From Octopus vulgaris (Eukaryota): a DNA stretch of 64,000 nt. The notes beneath the pieces are model-generated. The model was not told the origin of the DNA, searched no databases, and saw nothing but the letters and a program-made list of their open reading frames with translations. Position numbers and translations under genes: made by a program. This document shows, in pieces, positions 1,535 through 54,130 of the stretch; the stretch's first letter is position 1; every line of letters starts with the position of its first letter. The DNA is taken from NCBI GenBank assembly GCA_951406725.2, contig OX597817.1, positions 89,032,001 to 89,096,000 of the forward strand. The letters run 5' to 3'.

Positions 1535-3591
1535 ACGCACACGTACACATACACACACACACACACCCACATACATACATTACACTTGTATACACACACA
1601 CTTACATTCATACACACACACACCTACACAGCCATACCCTCACTCAGACACACACATCTACCTACACACACACAAACACACACTGACACACACCCATACA
1701 TACATACATCTACACACTCACGCCTACACACATACATACACACATACATAAACACACACACATACACATACACACACATACGCACACACGCATATACTTA
1801 TACACATGCACACACACACACATACATACATACACCCATATACATACACACACACATACCTACATACTCCTATACGCACATACATACACACAGACATACA
1901 CACATACACACTCACACAAACATACACACACACATACTTACACACACACTCACCTGCACGCGCACACACATGCATGACAAACACTCAAACACTCATACAC
2001 TCACACTCACATACGCACACACCAACATAAACACGCACACGCACACACACACCTACACTCCCACACACATACACACGCACCTACATACACACACGCGCGC
2101 ATACACACGCATACACACATACATTACACACGTACACACACACCTACATACACATGCATACACACACACACACAAACATGCACGGACACACCCAGACATA
2201 CATACATACACCTATATACACACGCCTACACACCTACATACACACACATATACACACGCCCACACAGCTACATACACACACATACATACACACATACACG
2301 GACACACCCATACATACTTACATACATACACCTATACACACACGCCTACACACCTACACACACACATGCACACACACACACATGTACGCACATACACACA
2401 CATATACGCACACACATATATACCCACACACATGCACACACACACATACGCACATACATGCACGCATGCACACGCGCACACCTACACGCATACACACACA
2501 CACACACACGCACGTACACATACATACATACACACACGCATACATACACCCATACACATACATGCATCCTACACACACATACATACACACTCACACATAC
2601 ATACACACACACGCACTCACTCACACACCTGTATGTTCGCGCACACACATGCACATACACACACTTCCCCACACCCACACGTACATACATACACACTCAT
2701 ACACACATACACACACACACACACACACGGACATACATCTATGCACACACATATATACACACATACTCACATACATTCATCGGACACACTGCCACCCAGA
2801 CATACACACAGACACACTCACACATCCACACGCACACATACGTACGCGCACACTCGCAGGCTCGCGCACACACGCGTTTGCGCCGGTTCGCGCACGCATG
2901 CGCCCCGCATGCACCTCGCCCTTGGACCCGACGAGACCTCCCGCCCGTTCCTGGGATGTCGCTTGTCGTTGGGTTTTCCCACGCCCGTCTCCGCGGGACC
3001 ACTCTTCCATCTTCCCCTCCGCTGGAGTCCTTTTCCTAACCCCCCCTTTTTTTCGTTACACACACGCGCACACATATACACACATTGCTTAAACATATAC
3101 ATCACTCTTACACACATTCAATCTACTCGCCACTAATACTACCACGACACTGGACACACACACACACTACTACTCAACACACGCTGGCACGCTACATACG
3201 CCCCCACCCCTTCCCCTCCCTCCCTTCCTCCTTCCTCCCTTTTCTCACTACTGACCTTTGTCTGCTATGCTGCTGCTATGTTGACCACCGTCTCGCCCTA
3301 CCTCACACGCCTACACACAGACGCACACACTAACACATACATATATTTTTTGTTTTTTTACCTCGCCTCACACACACACATACACACACGCACACGCACA
3401 CACTCACACATACACACACATCTGTTGCGTTACCAACCTTGTCTCCACTCTTTTGCCTTTAAAAACCCACTTTGCTCTTGTTATCGTAAACATCCGCCTT
3501 TCACCATGTGCTACTCCTAACACCAGCCGTTTTTTTCTCTATCTCCGTTGCCCGCTCCGGGATCTTTCTTTCCTCTCTCTTCCTTCTTTAT

Positions 3592-4597: not shown

Positions 4598-4639
4598 TTT
4601 CGCCTGTACATCTTTGTTTTATATATATATAAGAAAAAT

Positions 4640-5250
4640 GCAATAAATACTAAAAAACGTACACATAGGAAAGACACAGAAGGACCCTAACTCTTCATCA
4701 GTTATCGACTGAAATACTAGTACACAATTTCATGCCTTTAACGACAAGACTGACAACTTTGTATAGTGGCGGCACTCGCAAAATTTGCGGAGAATTGGGG
4801 CTCAAGTAAACAAAACGATAGAGAGTAGACGTTCGAAAGTAAACAAATGTAATTTGAAACGATTGACGAAGATTGAATAAATATCGCCTTTCTGTCAAAC
4901 AGACGGGAATGATGGGTAATGCCTGGAAGAAATCCTGAATGGATATAAAAAGAGAAGAGATAGATGTTGACCGGCAAGCTAAGCGTCTGGTGGCAAAAGA
5001 CAGACAGATGAGAAAATTAGTCACGGGTCACATGTGGGCAGTAGATAGAAGGGAAAGAGGATGAGAGAGAGGGAGAACGAGCGGCAGAGAGAGGAAGGAA
5101 GGAAGGAAGGGAGAGAGGAAGGGAGAAGGTCTACAATTACAAGTGAGAAAACGAGACAGAGGAAGAGAGGAAGTTGGGATGTTAGAAAAGGAATATGAAG
5201 ACGAGAGAGAAAGAAAGAAGATAGCGTCCCAAAAAATATATAAAACCTTA
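4640..5250 (-). mobile_element. Non-coding element carrying re-ordered hammerhead copy A
   Basis: On the minus strand: CT-rich 5' part, CACATGTGAC motif, T-rich linker, ribozyme and T-rich 3' end. Same layout as 18190-18830 and 45205-45680. Confidence 0.6.
4685..4800 (-). ncRNA. Re-ordered (NUH-GAAA-CUGANGA) hammerhead-like RNA, copy A
   Basis: Minus strand: X AAUUCU | hairpin C-CGCAA-AUU-UUGCG-A | Y GUGCC ... CAGU-C-UUGUCG ... GGCAU-GAAAUUG ... CGAUAA-CUGAUGA-AGAGUU. All helices can form. Confidence 0.75.
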
Positions 5251-5458
5251 CTGTTAACAAAAGTCAGGATGCGTGGCGTTCAGTTACACAATAAATGAAA
5301 AATGCATTAATAACGAAAAGAACGTACACACCCGCCCACACATACACACAATAAATAAATAAATAAATATATATTAATAATATAGAGTAAAATCAGTAAT
5401 AATTTTACCAGGTAGCCAGTACGGAAATAAAAACCTTTTAGGTAAATTTTACAAATTA

Positions 5459-5868
5459 TTTTATAATTATATACATAATTATAACTAGGGGTTAACTTTA
5501 TGCTTCGCCACGTACTGATTAGAAATAGACGCTAAAGTCTTTTTTTACTACCATAAAATCTCCGTGAAATAACACACTTTTAATGTAGGCAAAAGAAAAG
5601 TGATGAATCAACAAGGTCGGTCAATTATGAACGCGTTTCGAACTTAGTAAAACCTATTACTTACTAATATGTTTTACTTTAAGTTCGAAATGCGTTCATA
5701 ATTGACCGACCTTGTTGATTCATCACTTTTTTTTTTTGCCTACATTAAAAGTGTGTTGTTTCTCGGAGATTTTATGGTAGTAAAAAAGACTTTAGCGTCT
5801 ATTTCTAATCAGTACGTGGCGACGCATAAAGCTGACCCCTAGTTATAGTTATGTATATGATTGTAAAA
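5459..5868. repeat. Inverted repeat, about 195-bp arms
   Basis: 5459-5653 is the reverse complement of 5671-5868 with scattered mismatches. Both arms carry GAAA(C/T)GCGTT next to the centre. Confidence 0.92.
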
Positions 5869-14482: not shown

Positions 14483-15744
14483 TCAGGTCATCCCATAAGT
14501 TCTATCCGAATTTTGAATAAAGAAAACAAGTGATCAAATGTTATATTTAATTGAAATTTAACCATCACTGTACTTTCCCTGAATATATATGACTTCCTTC
14601 CATCTATTTACAAGCTTTTTAATCCCATCAATGTAAAACTCTTTTGGTTTCAAAGCGAAGAACTCTGAAATGTCAATTTCGACCTCCTCCTGGCTTGCGA
14701 AAATTATCTCCCCCAAATGATTCTGTAAACTACGAAACAAATGGTAGTCTGAAGGAGCAAGGTCGGGAGAATAAGGTGGATGAGGAATTTTTTCCCAACC
14801 AAGCTCTTCGATCTTCCGTGATGTGATCTTTGCAGTGTGGGGTCGCGCATTGTCCTGATGAAACATCACTCCTTTTCGATTCACTAAAGTGGGTCTTTTT
14901 TCTTCAAAGCTTGATTCAAACGCTTTAGTTGCTGACAGTAGATTTGAGCATTGATTGTTGCATTAGGTGGTAACAATTCAAAGTGAATTACATGGAGAGA
15001 AGAACTTTTTTTCCAGGAAGTTTCCTTCTCGGTTGTGGTTGAGCTTTTTCCCTTTTACCAAGCCACTGCTTATGACGTTTAACATTTCGATAGAAGATCT
15101 ATTTTTCGTCACCAGTCACAAGTCTATCCAAAAAGGGTGAAATGAGTTCGTGAGAATGGAGAGAAGAGCAGATGTCAACTCGGGATTTGCAGTTGCTTTC
15201 GGACAATTCATGAGGCACCCATTTTCCAAGTTTAGGAACCTTTCCAAGTTGTTGAAGATGACGATGAACAGTTGTCTGGTTTGAACTAAGCCTTATTGCC
15301 AATTCTTCGACTGATAATGCACGATTTTCTTTAAGTAATGCCTCAAGGAGCTTATCATCAAACTCAACAGGATATCCAAGTTCGATCTTCATCTTCAAGG
15401 CTGAAATCATCACTACTGAATTTTGCAAACCATCTTCTGTAAGTTCTTTCATTCAAGCATTCTTTCCCATAAACTGAGTGTATGTTTCGACTCGCTTCGG
15501 CTGCAGAGTTTCCTTTTTTGTACTCATAAAGCATTATGTGCCTTAAATGTTCTTTGGATATTTCCATATTAGAAAGGGTTTTAATCAAAGAAATTTTAAT
15601 TCTATTATTCTGTAAAATAATATTTAACTAGTTTAAATGTACACAAATGCATAAAAATAATTTTTAATTCCAATCTAAAATACTATTAAATTTCATTCAA
15701 TTTAAAAAACGGTAAAATCGGACAGAACTTATGGGATGACCTGA
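14483..15744 (-). mobile_element. Full-length mariner (DD34D) with a frameshifted transposase
   Basis: TIRs TCAGGTCATCCCATAAGTTCT(A/G)TCCGA at both ends with flanking TA. MEISKEHLRHIMLYEYKKGNSAAEA, WVPHEL, TGDEK, HQDNARPH and YSPDLAPSDYHLF lie in three frames (15567 to 14558). Confidence 0.95.
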
Positions 15745-18189: not shown

Positions 18190-18830
18190 CCATTGTCTCT
18201 ACCTCTCTTGTTCTTCATCCTTTCTGGTTTTCTCTCCGACACTTCCCTATTCTTCTCCACTCCCCATTCACCGTTCCCTCTTTCTTACTCCTCCTCGACT
18301 CTCTCGTCGCTGACACGTGATCAGAGGGAAGCCATCTTTCCAACTATCTTCCGACTATCTTCACAAAGACCAGACCAGCTTATCCCGTCTCTACATAAGC
18401 TGTCTCCTTAAGCGTTCAGAATAATGTTTCCCTCGTCTTGACTTAACAGCCCTCATCGTTTGTTTTTACTGTTTTGTTCTCATTGTTCTGTCTTTTACGG
18501 TTTGTACTTTTTTATTGTTTTTACAGTTTTGTTCTTACTGTCCTGTTCTTGTTATCACTTTCACCCTCCGCAAAAAATCCCAAATTTTATTTAATTTGCT
18601 TTGCGGGAAGGACTGTTTCAACGAAGTCGTGTCTTGTCCTTACCTTCGAACGCAAATTAGATAAAACAGGGACAACTGAAGAAGGGGAATATTCCTTGTG
18701 CTGTATATCTTTTTTCTCTGTTATTTTCGTTGTTTGAAAAAAAGTTCGTTCCTATGTTTTTGTTTTTATGCTTTCGTTTCTCATTATGTTCAACGTTTTT
18801 TTTATGTCCTGTACTCATATATGTATGTAC
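18190..18830 (+). mobile_element. Non-coding element carrying re-ordered hammerhead copy B
   Basis: Shares TTAACAGCCCT, the ribozyme region and the 3' end GTTC(A/G)ACGT..TTTT..TGTCCTGTAC.CATATATG with 49625-50085. Confidence 0.75.
18560..18689 (+). ncRNA. Re-ordered hammerhead-like RNA, copy B
   Basis: CCCU|CCGCAAA..UUUGCGG|GAAGG ... GUGU-C-UUGUCC ... CCUUC-GAACGC ... GGACAA-CUGAAGA-AGGG. One A of GAAA is missing. Confidence 0.7.
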
Positions 18831-18833
18831 TCA

Positions 18834-18879
<46 letters not shown>

Positions 18880-24485: not shown

Positions 24486-25759
24486 TTAGTTTGTCAAGAA
24501 AGTTCTTGCGGAATTTTAAATTTTGGTTTTAAATGATGTATTTTCAAATTAATTTTCGTTAAATTACTTTGACTTTGTATATCATTCTAATGTCTGTTCT
24601 TCGCTCTATCTAATCGTGTTACTCATTTTCTTTTTGACTAATTTGGCCATTTTTTCCGGAACGTTGAATACAACATGGACAAAAAGCAAATTCGCACAAT
24701 TTTCTGATTCCAGTTCAAGCTAGGCCGAAAAGCTGCTGAAACAGCTCGCAATATCAACGATGTGTTTGGCCCTGGAATCACTAATGAACGTACAGCACAA
24801 TGGTGGTTCAAGAAATTTCGTAGCGGTAACAAGAGTCTTTAAGATAATAAGCGTAGTGGTCAACCATCGGATGTTGACAACGATCAACTAAGAGCCTTAG
24901 TCGATGCCAGTGCACGCACAACTGTTTGAGAGCTTGTTTCTGAATTAGACATAACATATACGACAATTTTCAACCATTGAAAGAGATTGGAAAAACAAAA
25001 ATACTTGAGAAATAGATGCCGCACGAATTGAACGACCCCACTCCTCCAAAAGAAAACGTCGTTTTGAAGTCTCGTCTTAACTTCTTTTATGCAACAAGAA
25101 CGATCCGTTTCTCGACCTGATTGTAACTTGCGATGAAAAGTGGATTCTTTATGACAACCAGCGACGCCCAGCTCAGTGGTTGGACGCCAAAGAAGCTCCG
25201 CGGTATATCCCGAAGCCAAAGTTGCACCAAAAGAAGGTCATGGTGACTGTTTGTTGGTCTACGGCCGGACTCATCCATCACAGCTCTTTGGATCCAGACG
25301 AAACCATTACGGCGGAGAAGTACTGTCAGCAAAGGAATGAAATGCATAATAAACTCCGACAACAACAGCCAGCATTGGTCAAAATAAAAGGACCAATTCT
25401 TCTCCACGACAACGCTCGACTGCACACCTGCCCCTGCAGAAGTTGAACGAATTGGGCTACGAAACTCTGCCTCATCCGCCATACTCACCAGACCTCTCGC
25501 CCACCGACTACCACTTTTTCAAGCATCTAGACAACTTCCTGCGTGAGAAATGCTCCAAAAACCAAGACGATGCCAAACACGCCTTCAACGATTTCAGAAC
25601 GCAGGATTTTTACGCTACTGGCATAAATAAACTTGTTTCGCATTGGCAAAAGTGTGTTGATTCTGATGGTGTTCATTTCGATTAATAAAGTTTTGTTTGA
25701 GTCGAGATATGTGCATCTGAATTTAAAGGTTAAAAACTACAAGAACTTTCTTAAACTAA
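24486..25759 (+). mobile_element. Full-length mariner (cecropia/Hsmar1-like) with a pseudogenised transposase
   Basis: TA-flanked TIRs TTAGTTT(GTC)AAGAAAGTTCTTG. MDKKQIRTIF*FQFKLGRKAAETARNIN from 24675, [54 protein letters not shown], stop at 25685. Confidence 0.95.
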
Positions 25760-44931: not shown

Positions 44932-45202
44932 CAGATAGAAAACGATGAAGGGGAGAAAAAAGAATTAGAGAAAGGACGAGAGAGAAAACGAGGGGGGGGG
45001 CAGTAAAGGGTGCAGTCGCATCAAAAATATTAAGATGAACTTTGGACGCAACGTATCCATTTCCTACTAAGTTTATCTTAATATTTTTGATGCGACTGTA
45101 CCTATTACTGTTCTTTCTCTGTCTCTCTCGCTCTCTCCTCCTTTCGTTTTCTCTCTCGTCCTTTCTCTAATCCTTTTTCTCCCCTTCATCGTTTTCCATC
45201 TG
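44932..45202. repeat. Inverted repeat at the 5' side of the element carrying copy C
   Basis: GAAAACGATGAAGGGGAGAAAAA...CAGTCGCATCAAAAATATTAAGATGAACTT is mirrored at 45069-45202. Confidence 0.9.
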
Positions 45203-45496
45203 TCTGAGTGTCTGTCTCTCTCTCTGTTTCTCTTCCTCTTTTACTCTCTCTCGTTGCTCATACGTGACCATCGTCCTTCTTTGTTTTCCTCATGTGATCA
45301 TCTTTCTTCTCCTTCAGTTCTGTCGTACAGACTGCGCGTATTCCTATCTATCTCCTCTTCTATCTTTTCTTTTGTCAAAGACAATATTTCTCCAGTGTTC
45401 ACTACTTTACTTCGTCTGGTCTGTCGATCCTCCATGTTTGTTTTCGTTAAATTTCCTTGTATGTCTCCACTGCCCTGTTTTTGTTACCAACTTTGA

Positions 45497-45613
45497 CCCT
45501 CCTCAAACCCCAAATTTTATTTTGGCTTGCGGGAGCAACTGCCTTCAAAGTCTTATGTTGTCGTTCAATGCTCGAAATAAGGTGTAGAAGGACAGCAGAC
45601 AACTGATGAAGGG
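45497..45613 (+). ncRNA. Re-ordered hammerhead-like RNA, copy C
   Basis: CCCU|CCUCAA..UUGCGG|GAGCA ... CUUAU-G-UUGUC ... UGCUC-GAAAUAAG ... GACAA-CUGAUGA-AGGG. Position 17 is G, which is normally not cleavable. Confidence 0.72.
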
Positions 45614-45770
45614 CCGTTTTTTTAAAGTTACTTGTCTTGTTTCCCATTTGCTTCTCGTTGTTTGCGTGCACAAAGGTTAGGAGGAGTTTTCGTCGGGCTA
45701 CCCAAGCTTATAGATATGTCCCACTTGGATATAAGGAACCAAAACAACTATCATTGATACGGAACTTTCT

Positions 45771-49624: not shown

Positions 49625-50085
49625 TATTCGACATCTTCCTCTCTCGTCGTCCACTATAATCCAGCGTTTGCAATACTTTTTTCGTCTGGCGTTAACAGCC
49701 CTTCTTATCTTGTTCTCCTTGTCCTGTCTCTCACTGTTATATATTTATTTTTCCACTGTTTATATATATATTTTTTACTGTTTATATGTTTGTACTGTCG
49801 TTACCGTCTTGCTTTTTTTACCCCTCTGCGAAAAGATCTCAGAATTTTAATTGATTTGCTTTTCGCAGGAAGGAATTTTTCATTCGAAGTATACGTCTCG
49901 CTTTTATCCTTCGAAACGTTTAGTAGATGAAACTTTAGCGACTGAAGAAGGGGATTTTTCGTTGTGCTTATTGTCCTGTATCTCCTTTTTTTTGCCTGTC
50001 TTGTTCCTTGGTTTGTGTCTATGTTTTTCGTCTCTCTATGTGTTCGACGTCTTTTTGGTGTCCTGTACACATATATGCGTGTATA
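49625..50085 (+). mobile_element. Non-coding element carrying re-ordered hammerhead copy D
   Basis: Homologous to 18400-18830; follows a short (TA)n and ends in TA-rich low-complexity sequence. Confidence 0.75.
49821..49953 (+). ncRNA. Re-ordered hammerhead-like RNA, copy D (best preserved)
   Basis: CCCCU|CUGCGAAAAG..CUUUUCGCAG|GAAGGA ... ACGU-C-UCGCU ... UCCUUC-GAAACGU ... AGCGA-CUGAAGA-AGGGG. All helices Watson-Crick, intact core, GUC site. Confidence 0.82.
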
Positions 50086-50142
50086 TGTACATGTAGAGGT
50101 AGGTACGTACATATATGTTTATATATATGCATATATTTTATT

Positions 50143-50193
<51 letters not shown>

Positions 50194-53039: not shown

Positions 53040-53485
53040 ACACACATACACACGCATACACACACACTCATGTACGTGTCTGGCGAGTTTGGTTCGTTTG
53101 ATGAGCCGATGAAAATTGGAGCCGAATCAAACTGTTATCAAGTAATAGGGTGTTCACACTAAATTTGACGATTTTTAAATGTCTCCCGTTTTCAGGAATA
53201 GCTTAAGGCATTGGTGATCAGTCATCGGCGTTTGAGCCCTTAAAGGTTAAAGTTATTGTTGAGTAAACGTTAACTGACATGGAGGACTGGAAGCCATCTG
53301 ACTATTGTTGGAAAGGAATTGCCTGTATTATGATGATTTACGTCGGGCAACAAAATGCCGACATCATGATTGCTGCACACTGCTACGTAAACACTGTACA
53401 GGCTGTGAAACGTGACAACTGCAACGAAAGCTATTAATCCGTGGCCAGCAGGAAGGGACACAGTAGGCGTTCTGACTGTGTCTAC

Positions 53486-54130
53486 ACGAAGGAGCTAGAT
53501 CAGCTCTATATACTGGGTGTAGCATCAGTTCAATTCCCTCAAGTTCCTGGAGTTTAATCCGGGTCGTTTGGGCTGTATGAGGTTTTTTGTTGTCTTGCTG
53601 CAGAAGAGCACGCGTTCTCTTAACCAATGTGGAGTATTTTTTGTCGCACATTGGTATACAACCGCACCAGCTGTTCACAGTACTGGTTGATATCGTTAGT
53701 TTGACCGTCCAGAACGAACTTGTAATGAATTATCCGTTTATAATTCCACCAGACACAGAGATTCACCTTGTGTTCGAAACGCCCATGTTTAGCGACAGGT
53801 TCTAGAAGCTGGCCGTTGCTCAGCCACTGCTTATGCATGACAAGACAGAAGGAAAATATCTCCCTCGGATTATCACCTGTTCCAGGGCATGACTCGCTTC
53901 TTGCGCTCGTGACTCTTCATCAACAAAGAGAAGGTGGAAGCTTCACTGAAGGAATTCTTTGCCTCGAAGGGCAAGAACTAGCATCAGCGTGGGATCAAAG
54001 AGCTGGCAGAAAGGTGGCTTCAGACGGTGCAGCACCATGACCTCTAGTTTTAAATGCTAGGCTTTTTTTTGTGTAATTAGACGAATGAAATAAGTGACCA
54101 AAATATTGCAAAACTTTTCTCTCAACACAA
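53486..54130. mobile_element. Rearranged mariner remnant
   Basis: Minus strand 53486-53838: KVNLCVWWNYKRIIHYK, LLQQDNKKPHTA, HPVYRADLAPS. Plus strand about 53898-54050: KEKVEASLKEFFASK..RGIKELAERWLQTVQH, then a TIR-like end ...AAAACTTTTCTCTCAACACAA-TA. Confidence 0.8.

Follow-up and report, generated by a model that had tools for sequence, protein, structure and literature searches.

Hammerhead ribozyme parts in a rearranged order in a high-copy, non-coding repeat of Octopus vulgaris: a decayed copy of a probably self-cleaving motif

The minus strand of a short segment (4685-4800) of the window, that is, of the whole stretch of 64,000 nucleotides of the Octopus vulgaris assembly that was analyzed, carries the conserved sequence blocks of a hammerhead ribozyme in an unusual order, which raises the question of whether such an arrangement could cleave itself and of what this locus is a copy. 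On the sequence evidence assembled below, we consider it reasonably probable that the locus derives from a high-copy non-coding repeat and has since decayed. Toward its 3' end the repeat holds a hammerhead core that runs from the 5' strand of stem II through the cleavage site and GAAA to CUGAUGA, and its well-preserved family form would likely self-cleave, probably as a domain-swapped pair of copies. A preliminary description had placed CUGAUGA, GAAA, GUC, helix X, a junction hairpin and helix Y on the minus strand, and we located all of them at the places given. The elements are as follows:

4622..5330, minus strand: non-coding repeat of family A, full unit about 710 nt, 3' end beside a TA run
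4685-4800, minus strand: copy A, hammerhead parts CUGAUGA, GAAA and GUC
4791..4800, minus strand: helix X, 5' strand CCCCAAUUCU, which pairs at each position in 30-35 of 36-37 siblings
4776..4790, minus strand: junction hairpin CCGCAA-AUU-UUGCGA, base pair C-A here and C-G in 29/37 siblings
4771..4775, minus strand: Y, the stem II 5' strand GUGCC, G4775 being the probable G10.1
4761..4770, minus strand: helix Z, 5' strand, broken in copy A; corresponds in place to the 'interaction I' helix of types SGC and CSG
4748..4752, minus strand: stem III 5' strand CAG, U16.1 and C17, with GUC at 4750-4748
3' of C4748, minus strand: predicted cut, by analogy with hammerheads
4742..4747, minus strand: stem I 3' strand UUGUCG (sibling alignment), then UUAAA before Y'
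4732..4736, minus strand: Y', the stem II 3' strand GGCAU, U11.1 here and C in 12/37 siblings
4725..4731, minus strand: G12-A13-A14-A15.1 (GAAA, 4731-4728) and stem III 3' strand, U15.2 here and C in 33/37 siblings
4708..4717, minus strand: helix Z, 3' strand (sibling alignment)
4702..4707, minus strand: stem I 5' strand CGAUAA (sibling alignment)
4695..4701, minus strand: core C3-U4-G5-A6-U7-G8-A9 (CUGAUGA)
4685..4694, minus strand: X', the 3' strand of helix X, AGAGUUAGGG, immediately 3' of A9

The limits of the 4622..5330 unit were set by comparison with other family A loci, and the unit showed 80-81% identity over 712-730 nt to the tandem copies L013 and L015. In copy A the core (C3 U4 G5 A6 N7 G8 A9, G12 A13 A14 A15.1, U16.1 H17) is complete and is abutted by helices I, II and III: stem I (UUGUCG/CGAUAA) has six pairs, stem II (Y/Y') five with a G-U pair on the core side, and stem III (CAGU/AUUG) four, the second of which is also G-U. 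X/X' consists of six pairs, a C-A mismatch and three C-G pairs, the extension by CCC/GGG that had been described being present beyond the mismatch. The C after which a cut had been predicted ends the GUC at 4750-4748 and pairs with plus-strand G4748. With a core in SGC order and its helices in place, the proposal of a hammerhead-like RNA on the minus strand was upheld, and a ribozyme on the plus strand at this locus was ruled out, as that strand has no CUGAnGA. The strand is given by the core sequence itself; the G-U pairs, which had been taken to favor the minus strand, are Watson-Crick pairs in most siblings (U-A in 31/37, A-U in 34/37 and G-C in 33/37) and thus reflect decay and provide no strand evidence. 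The Rfam covariance models gave no hammerhead match in the 64-kb window at the gathering score, and no hammerhead model matched up to E 10 in a family A copy (L029) or in two further loci (L032 and L253).

We then addressed the wiring of the core. The blocks of copy A follow one another as cleavage site, GAAA and CUGAUGA, the non-circular order of type SGC. The 5' strand of stem II does not follow CUGAnGA; it has moved ahead of the cleavage site, into the 5' part of the RNA, and A9 runs into helix X rather than directly (0-2 nt) into that strand. Among 88 matches to the descriptor introduced below, the first base of Y was G in 87 (75 G-C and 12 G-U pairs), a base that the descriptor did not demand, and the other Y positions varied among three to four pair types. 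G10.1-C11.1 is the conserved closing pair of stem II in hammerheads, and this signature therefore identifies Y/Y' as stem II and not an accessory helix; the preliminary description had overlooked helix Z. We infer that the first base of Y would be G10.1 and that helix X and its hairpin would replace the A9-G10.1 backbone link, so that the motif would belong to the cyclic class of SGC/CSG, with its opening placed in the X loop. If that loop were joined, a hammerhead in CSG order would result whose core holds a branched insertion.

Two conventional solutions were tried and rejected. If X' paired directly with Y' as stem II, leaving an A bulged, four weak pairs would be possible in families B, C and D, one in family A and none in family E, and this helix was therefore rejected as a shared fold. 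X' starts with CU, AA or UG in families E and N, which makes a direct stem II by X' impossible there, and A-C follows CUGAUGA in coral Naiads (read by eye), which excludes it there too. A canonical hammerhead built from tandem neighbors fails because tandem repetition preserves the S-G-C cyclic order, so that types I-III cannot arise. To our knowledge, no hammerhead is known in which the chain is broken between A9 and G10.1, and this counts against the cleavage reading. No published description of the scrambled wiring was found in a literature search whose reach excluded most subscription papers. CUGAnGA and its two flanking stem strands have been treated as one block, assumed to be uninterruptible, in the available text of Eckert et al. 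(2023, PMC10085705); since this block is broken here, the motif lies outside every described hammerhead type. Judged from sequence, it is a real and conserved RNA motif, a known ribozyme in a new wiring, and very likely works like a hammerhead.

The descriptor, comprising the core, stems I and III, Y, X and the hairpin, was written after copy A had been seen. It matched the window twice (copy A, and copy D at 49942 on the plus strand) and had no match in 300 block-wise Markov shuffles of the window with both strands scanned; because it was modelled on copy A, the independent part of this result is copy D and the genome-wide families. In the octopus assembly, which has 2.8 Gb and is rich in microsatellites, the pattern GAAAC-N15-32-RACUGANGAAGGG had 4005 matches compared with 13 for the reversed control, and a Naiad-type pattern read from the octopus Naiad consensus had 553 compared with none. 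When a descriptor that left the first base of Y free was run over 412 loci (1.18 Mb) that prior searches had enriched for these repeats, 88 distinct motif matches were obtained. They belonged to families A, B, C and D, all with copies in the window, to family N, found by pattern, and to an unsought family E, which turned up in the flanks of other loci. Up to four pair types occurred per helix position across nine clusters, helix pairing among the 88 matches being partly built into the descriptor. In all clusters, 13-16 nt separate the cut from GAAA and 23-27 nt separate GAAA from CUGA, and the NUH triplet varied among GUC, AUC, AUA, GUA and UUC across the families and Naiads. All six families form X/X', the hairpin and Y/Y' from differing sequences, which bears out the preliminary description in taking them as real helices. 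In family E (flanks of L010, L320 and L329) the helices differ from those of the other families, and a loop resembling a kink-turn separates stem III from helix Z.

Family A aligned with families B, C and D only over a short stretch (E 0.1). Families B, C and D share a common origin (66-70% identity), and the likeness of the hairpin arm among them is to be read in this light. The reported similarity of this arm in copies A-D holds for the family majorities (CCGCAA in A, B and C, and CUGCGA in D) but not for the window copy of family C, which has CCUCAA; the hairpin loop of copy A, described as reduced, is with its 3 nt the norm of family A.

The intact core of copy A had been given weight in the preliminary description. 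All 12 core bases are indeed kept, but the core is also complete in 23 of the 37 family A siblings in the sibling alignment, and the flanking helices of copy A have decayed; its intact core is what drift at its divergence would leave. Copy A differs from the family A majority at 15 of 121 positions. Its G16.2-U15.2 pair is G-C in 33/37 siblings, its G10.1-U11.1 pair is a product of CpG decay (G-C in 10/37 siblings), and C-A mismatches occur within X and at the base of the hairpin. In helix Z only 6 of the 10 positions are paired, with four unpaired in a row. The arm formed by stem III and Z ranked 35th in stability among 38 family A copies, the minimum free energy (MFE) z-score was -1.65, and neither Z nor stem III formed in the MFE fold. 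Copy A is thus likely a weak or dead relic. Within family A, core bases deviated less than other bases (4.8% and 10.4%), a comparison confounded by CpG decay and match selection and given no weight here. The other copies in the window differ in state:

18281..18862, plus strand: family B copy, CUGAAGA at 18676, one A of GAAA lost
45135..45673, plus strand: family C copy, CUGAUGA at 45603, G at position 17
49628..50154, plus strand: family D copy, truncated at the 5' end, flanked on either side by TA runs, 99.6-99.8% identity to other copies
49821-49953, plus strand: family D motif, predicted cut after 49897

The B copy is decayed, as one A of GAAA is missing, and the C copy is a predicted non-cutter because of its G17. 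The D copy, as judged from its sequence, is young and its motif is intact; the best 40 genome matches of family D were 100% identical to rounding.

The families consist of non-coding units of about 670-834 nt. Family A occurs as direct repeats about 670 nt apart (L013, L014, L015, L020 and L028) and as inverted pieces (L004, L009, L019 and L027). Family D has a period of about 834 and forms arrays of up to 6 units, with 602 exact matches of a 31-nt anchor; a TA run lies within 12 nt of the 5' end in 43 of 64 insertions, and the 5' breakpoints are spread over the unit, as in variable 5' truncation. Partial tandems, inverted 5' pieces, TA targets and 5' truncation are the anatomy of Penelope-like elements (PLEs). 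Contigs of four presumed-RNA runs cover most of the D unit, ends and strand not being readable from them; none of these contigs matched copy A, which speaks neither for nor against its expression.

An autonomous partner of families A-D was sought at 30 GIY-YIG loci and 30 C-terminal-GIY-YIG loci, and no motif was found behind an open reading frame (ORF) there; the exceptions among these 60 loci were a head-to-head junction (L167) and two pieces close by on the same strand (L285 and L298). At the junction (L167:982-1790), a PLE ORF fragment is fused head to head, with no spacer, to an inverted B-like tandem, which is twin priming or a template switch between two RNAs. In L298 (oriented), CUGAUGA and GAAA stand in canonical order with a possible stem II at about 2000-2080, adjoining a B/C-like stretch. 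An intact element encoding a 781-aa reverse transcriptase (RT) with a C-terminal GIY-YIG, or a relative of it, was considered as partner and rejected, no motif lying downstream of their ORFs. This PLE-like family (L271:744-4006), with its 781-aa ORF and many copies of equal length, is apparently active; the ORF is preceded by a 333-aa frame, the 3' side has tandem repeats with TGATGACGTC, and no hammerhead core was seen behind the ORF. No RT frame was found beside family N at 20 N-motif loci or at 7 extended loci, and family N is therefore called Naiad only by its match to published ends. Families A-D, being non-coding, do not have the Naiad ORF with its N-terminal GIY-YIG and C-terminal RT.

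Helix Z forms between two linkers, one that follows Y and one that precedes the 5' strand of stem I, and lies at the place of the 'interaction I' helix of SGC/CSG hammerheads. In family A, nine of its ten positions are paired in 30-35 of 36-37 siblings. Z is continuous with stem III as a rod of 14-18 pairs in 26 of 38 family A copies; the rod formed in the MFE structures of L029, L024 and L351 and was absent from that of L253. We scored the arm of stem III and Z in seven single copies against 2000 shuffles of the linkers. It was clearly above the shuffles in two of the seven, the A copy L029 (3/2000) and the B copy L351 (0/2000), and marginal in a family E copy (66/2000 as good); it was no better than the shuffles in the copies of families C (275/2000), D (418) and N (808) and in copy A (1117).

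Both strands of Z are linked to stem III, and 0-2 nt join the rod to Y and to the stem I 5' strand. An RNA helix rises 2.8 A per pair, so a rod of 14-18 pairs measures about 40-50 A, and with such short linkers its tip loop should be unable to pair at the base of its own rod. The rod thus makes a one-molecule fold hard and a domain-swapped dimer likely. A direct link from the interaction helix to stem III is also hard to fit to the crystal structure, as far as it is described in the available text of Eckert et al. (PMC10085705). Whatever the length of the rod, a two-fold dimer would allow all helices to form, and a tandem copy could serve as the partner. Families N and E have what we take, by eye, to be a kink-turn-like hinge between stem III and Z, and this hinge might allow a one-molecule fold.

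We proposed that each RNA would first fold in a nested manner into X, the hairpin and the rod of stem III and Z, whose 20-nt tip loop would hold C17, the 3' strand of stem I, Y' and GAA. The base of another copy, either a tandem neighbor or a separate transcript, would receive this loop; stems I and II would form in trans, and two active sites would result. Element RNA might in this way be cut from read-through or tandem transcripts for Penelope-like reverse transcription. Metazoan PLE hammerheads are described as built to act as dimers in the accessible part of PMC4209133.

If the motif cleaves in the animal, insertions might begin at the predicted cut. We mapped 5' ends with anchors downstream of the cut and counted those at 0..+16 within the range -60..+47. 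For family B, 70 of 591 pattern matches were sampled, and 69 were scored after removal of a duplicate, four internal deletions being dropped. Here, 25 of 38 ends fell in the interval compared with 6.0 expected (p 5e-12), at a density of 1.47 per nt compared with 0.10 upstream and 0.23 downstream. The peak begins at the predicted cut with a drop of about 15-fold upstream, and it lies at +1..+16 and not exactly at 0; TA density does not explain it, since TA/AT is less dense in the peak interval than upstream. No peak was observed in family A (30/34 matches; 4 of 20 ends in the interval, 3.1 expected, p 0.39) or in family D (70 loci of 602 matches, giving 64 insertions; 3 of 11, 1.7 expected, p 0.24). 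That 5' ends accumulate at the cut in all families, as a biased sample had initially suggested, was thus rejected, the peak being absent in D and A and present in B only. The B peak fits reverse transcription that ran off a 5'-OH end with the loss of a few bases; a transcription start or a stop of the reverse transcriptase or polymerase could also give it. For the anole Poseidon element, insertion without hammerhead cleavage has been described, with no RNA ends at the cut (PMC11167929), and this independence was counted against a cutting role.

The motif appears to extend to Naiads as well. These elements were reported without a canonical hammerhead, with 10 'HHR_core' and 8 'HHR_half_core' cases and Naiad_Ovul among those marked, in the available text of Craig et al. 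(2021, PMC8557442). In File S5 of PMC8557442 we inspected the terminal ~420 nt of 47 Naiad consensus sequences by eye, and within these stretches 11 of the 47 3' ends showed the same strand order and helices in unrelated sequence: Bfor, Chem-3, Amil, Aacu, Anas, Movir-2, Plae, EuTe, Obim, Ovul and Esco. Amil, Aacu and Anas are three near-identical corals and Obim and Ovul are near-identical, stem I of Bfor has only two pairs, X of Plae lies outside the stretch shown, and Esco is imperfect. In the same reading, six nematode Naiads (Nbra-1, -2, -3, Hcon, Hpol and Asuum) were of type CSG, and within the stretches shown the fold was not parsed in the remaining 30 of 47. The nematode CSG hammerheads are clean and have an interaction helix; this type was previously known from two metagenomic sequences only, according to the accessible part of PMC10085705. 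Naiads may always carry some self-cleaving ribozyme. The ends of Naiad-1_Movir, Naiad-1/-2_Chem and several bivalve Naiads, read by eye, are without hammerhead and have what we presume to be twister-like motifs.

Families A-D share with Naiads, as presented in the available text of PMC8557442, the (TA)n targets, partial tandems, inverted 5' pieces and 5' truncation, but they are non-coding and 700-830 nt long; the architecture is common, and sequence homology was not found. Cephalopod Naiads are described there as old, long-dead remnants, whereas family D is very young. Compared with type SGC/CSG hammerheads, as far as the available text of PMC10085705 describes them, the motif has the same cyclic S-G-C order, the 3-5 nt link of the 3' strands of stems I and II and, in helix Z, a probable equivalent of the helix that connects the far sides of these two stems; it differs by X and the hairpin between A9 and G10.1 and by both Z strands running into stem III. 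Type SGC/CSG hammerheads cleave in vitro and, in that text, come from metatranscriptomes and metagenomes and none from the genome of a known organism, whereas the octopus motif has thousands of copies.

The minimal dimeric hammerheads of metazoan PLEs (Cervera and de la Pena 2014, PMC4209133, in the part available) resemble the octopus motif in lying in PLE repeats, in the extra base after CUGAnGA (families A-D), in tandem dimers and in low expected monomer activity. They are of type I and swap stem III, whereas the octopus motif forms stem III within one molecule and would swap stems I and II. Animal non-LTR retrozymes are likewise non-autonomous, tandem, tied to PLEs and hammerhead-bearing, but their hammerheads are classical type I (available parts of bioRxiv 10.64898/2026.07.22.740005 and PMC7229834). 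Natural core insertions and helix-type contacts between stems I and II also occur in core-variant hammerheads; in the available text of Perreault et al. (2011, PMC3088659), these insertions have 1-2 nt, no helix is inserted between A9 and stem II, and no variant is non-circular.

A bolder proposal can be made only tentatively from these comparisons, and we hold it somewhat more doubtful than not: the motif might be a seventh natural hammerhead wiring, with the chain entering by way of the catalytic core, and the missing ribozyme of Naiads and related PLEs from ctenophores to octopuses, an obligate two-fold docking dimer that would cut only tandem or crowded transcripts, and would do so in the animal, as the B ends suggest. 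The main competitor, which we regard as rather unlikely, is the same ribozyme cleaving as a single molecule, with Z bent at a hinge or melted and the arm of stem III and Z serving as an off-state until a protein or the cell context opens it. The kink-turn-like loop in families N and E speaks for such a fold, together with bulges of 5-7 nt or a branch between III and Z in coral, box-jelly and hydrozoan Naiads (by eye) and the single-motif nature of most B copies that end at the cut site. On the other side, the family A arm is nearly continuous, with up to 18 pairs and links of 0-2 nt to Y and stem I, and families B, C and D carry an AGUA/GAA loop between III and Z, a loop usually regarded as straight; in the consensus stretch shown for Naiad_EuTe, the arm has one single-base bulge by eye. 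SGC ribozymes with a link of 0-44 nt between stem III and the interaction helix cleave in vitro (available text of PMC10085705), and an anole PLE hammerhead cleaved only with the protein of its element (PMC11167929), both of which agree with the single-molecule fold.

We consider it improbable that the motif is a hammerhead-derived but no longer cutting signal of a retroelement (protein binding, RT stop or promoter), with the B peak as a start or stop. The missing 5'-end peak in A and D, and the fact that D spreads in multimers of up to 6 units that span the motif, would agree with this, as would the transcription starts that PLE pseudo-LTRs contain and the dispensability of cleavage in vitro for the Poseidon element (PMC11167929); however, the core bases, NUH and G10.1-C11.1 persist across unrelated sequences and phyla, and the B peak starts at the predicted cut with about 15-fold fewer ends upstream. 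That short motifs merely co-occurred by chance and were amplified with the repeat is hardly credible: the MFE z-score of copy A (only -1.65) and the missing Rfam match would suit it, but the 0/300 shuffles, the six families with different helices and the counts of 4005 to 13 and 553 to 0 do not.

If the self-cleaving motif that we favor does cleave, the rule that CUGAnGA and its flanking stems form an uninterruptible block, and hence that there are six orders, would be broken. Non-circular hammerheads, hitherto from environmental RNA, would then be present in animal genomes in thousands of copies, the apparent lack of a hammerhead in Naiads would be explained, and self-cleavage would again be a near-general trait of PLEs. 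A head-to-tail docking dimer would be a new way of tying cleavage to copy number.

Other features were observed in the window. About 220 nt beyond the 5' end of the family A unit lies a long, MITE-like inverted repeat with arms of more than 100 nt (5545-5660 and 5690-5850). Fragments at 14558-14962 (minus), 25081-25446 (plus) and 53364-53729 (minus) are what we take to be mariner transposase-like sequences. Two GC-rich islands within CA-rich microsatellite (1000-1300 and 2950-3100) are unlike the surrounding DNA and are possibly promoter or rDNA-like pieces.
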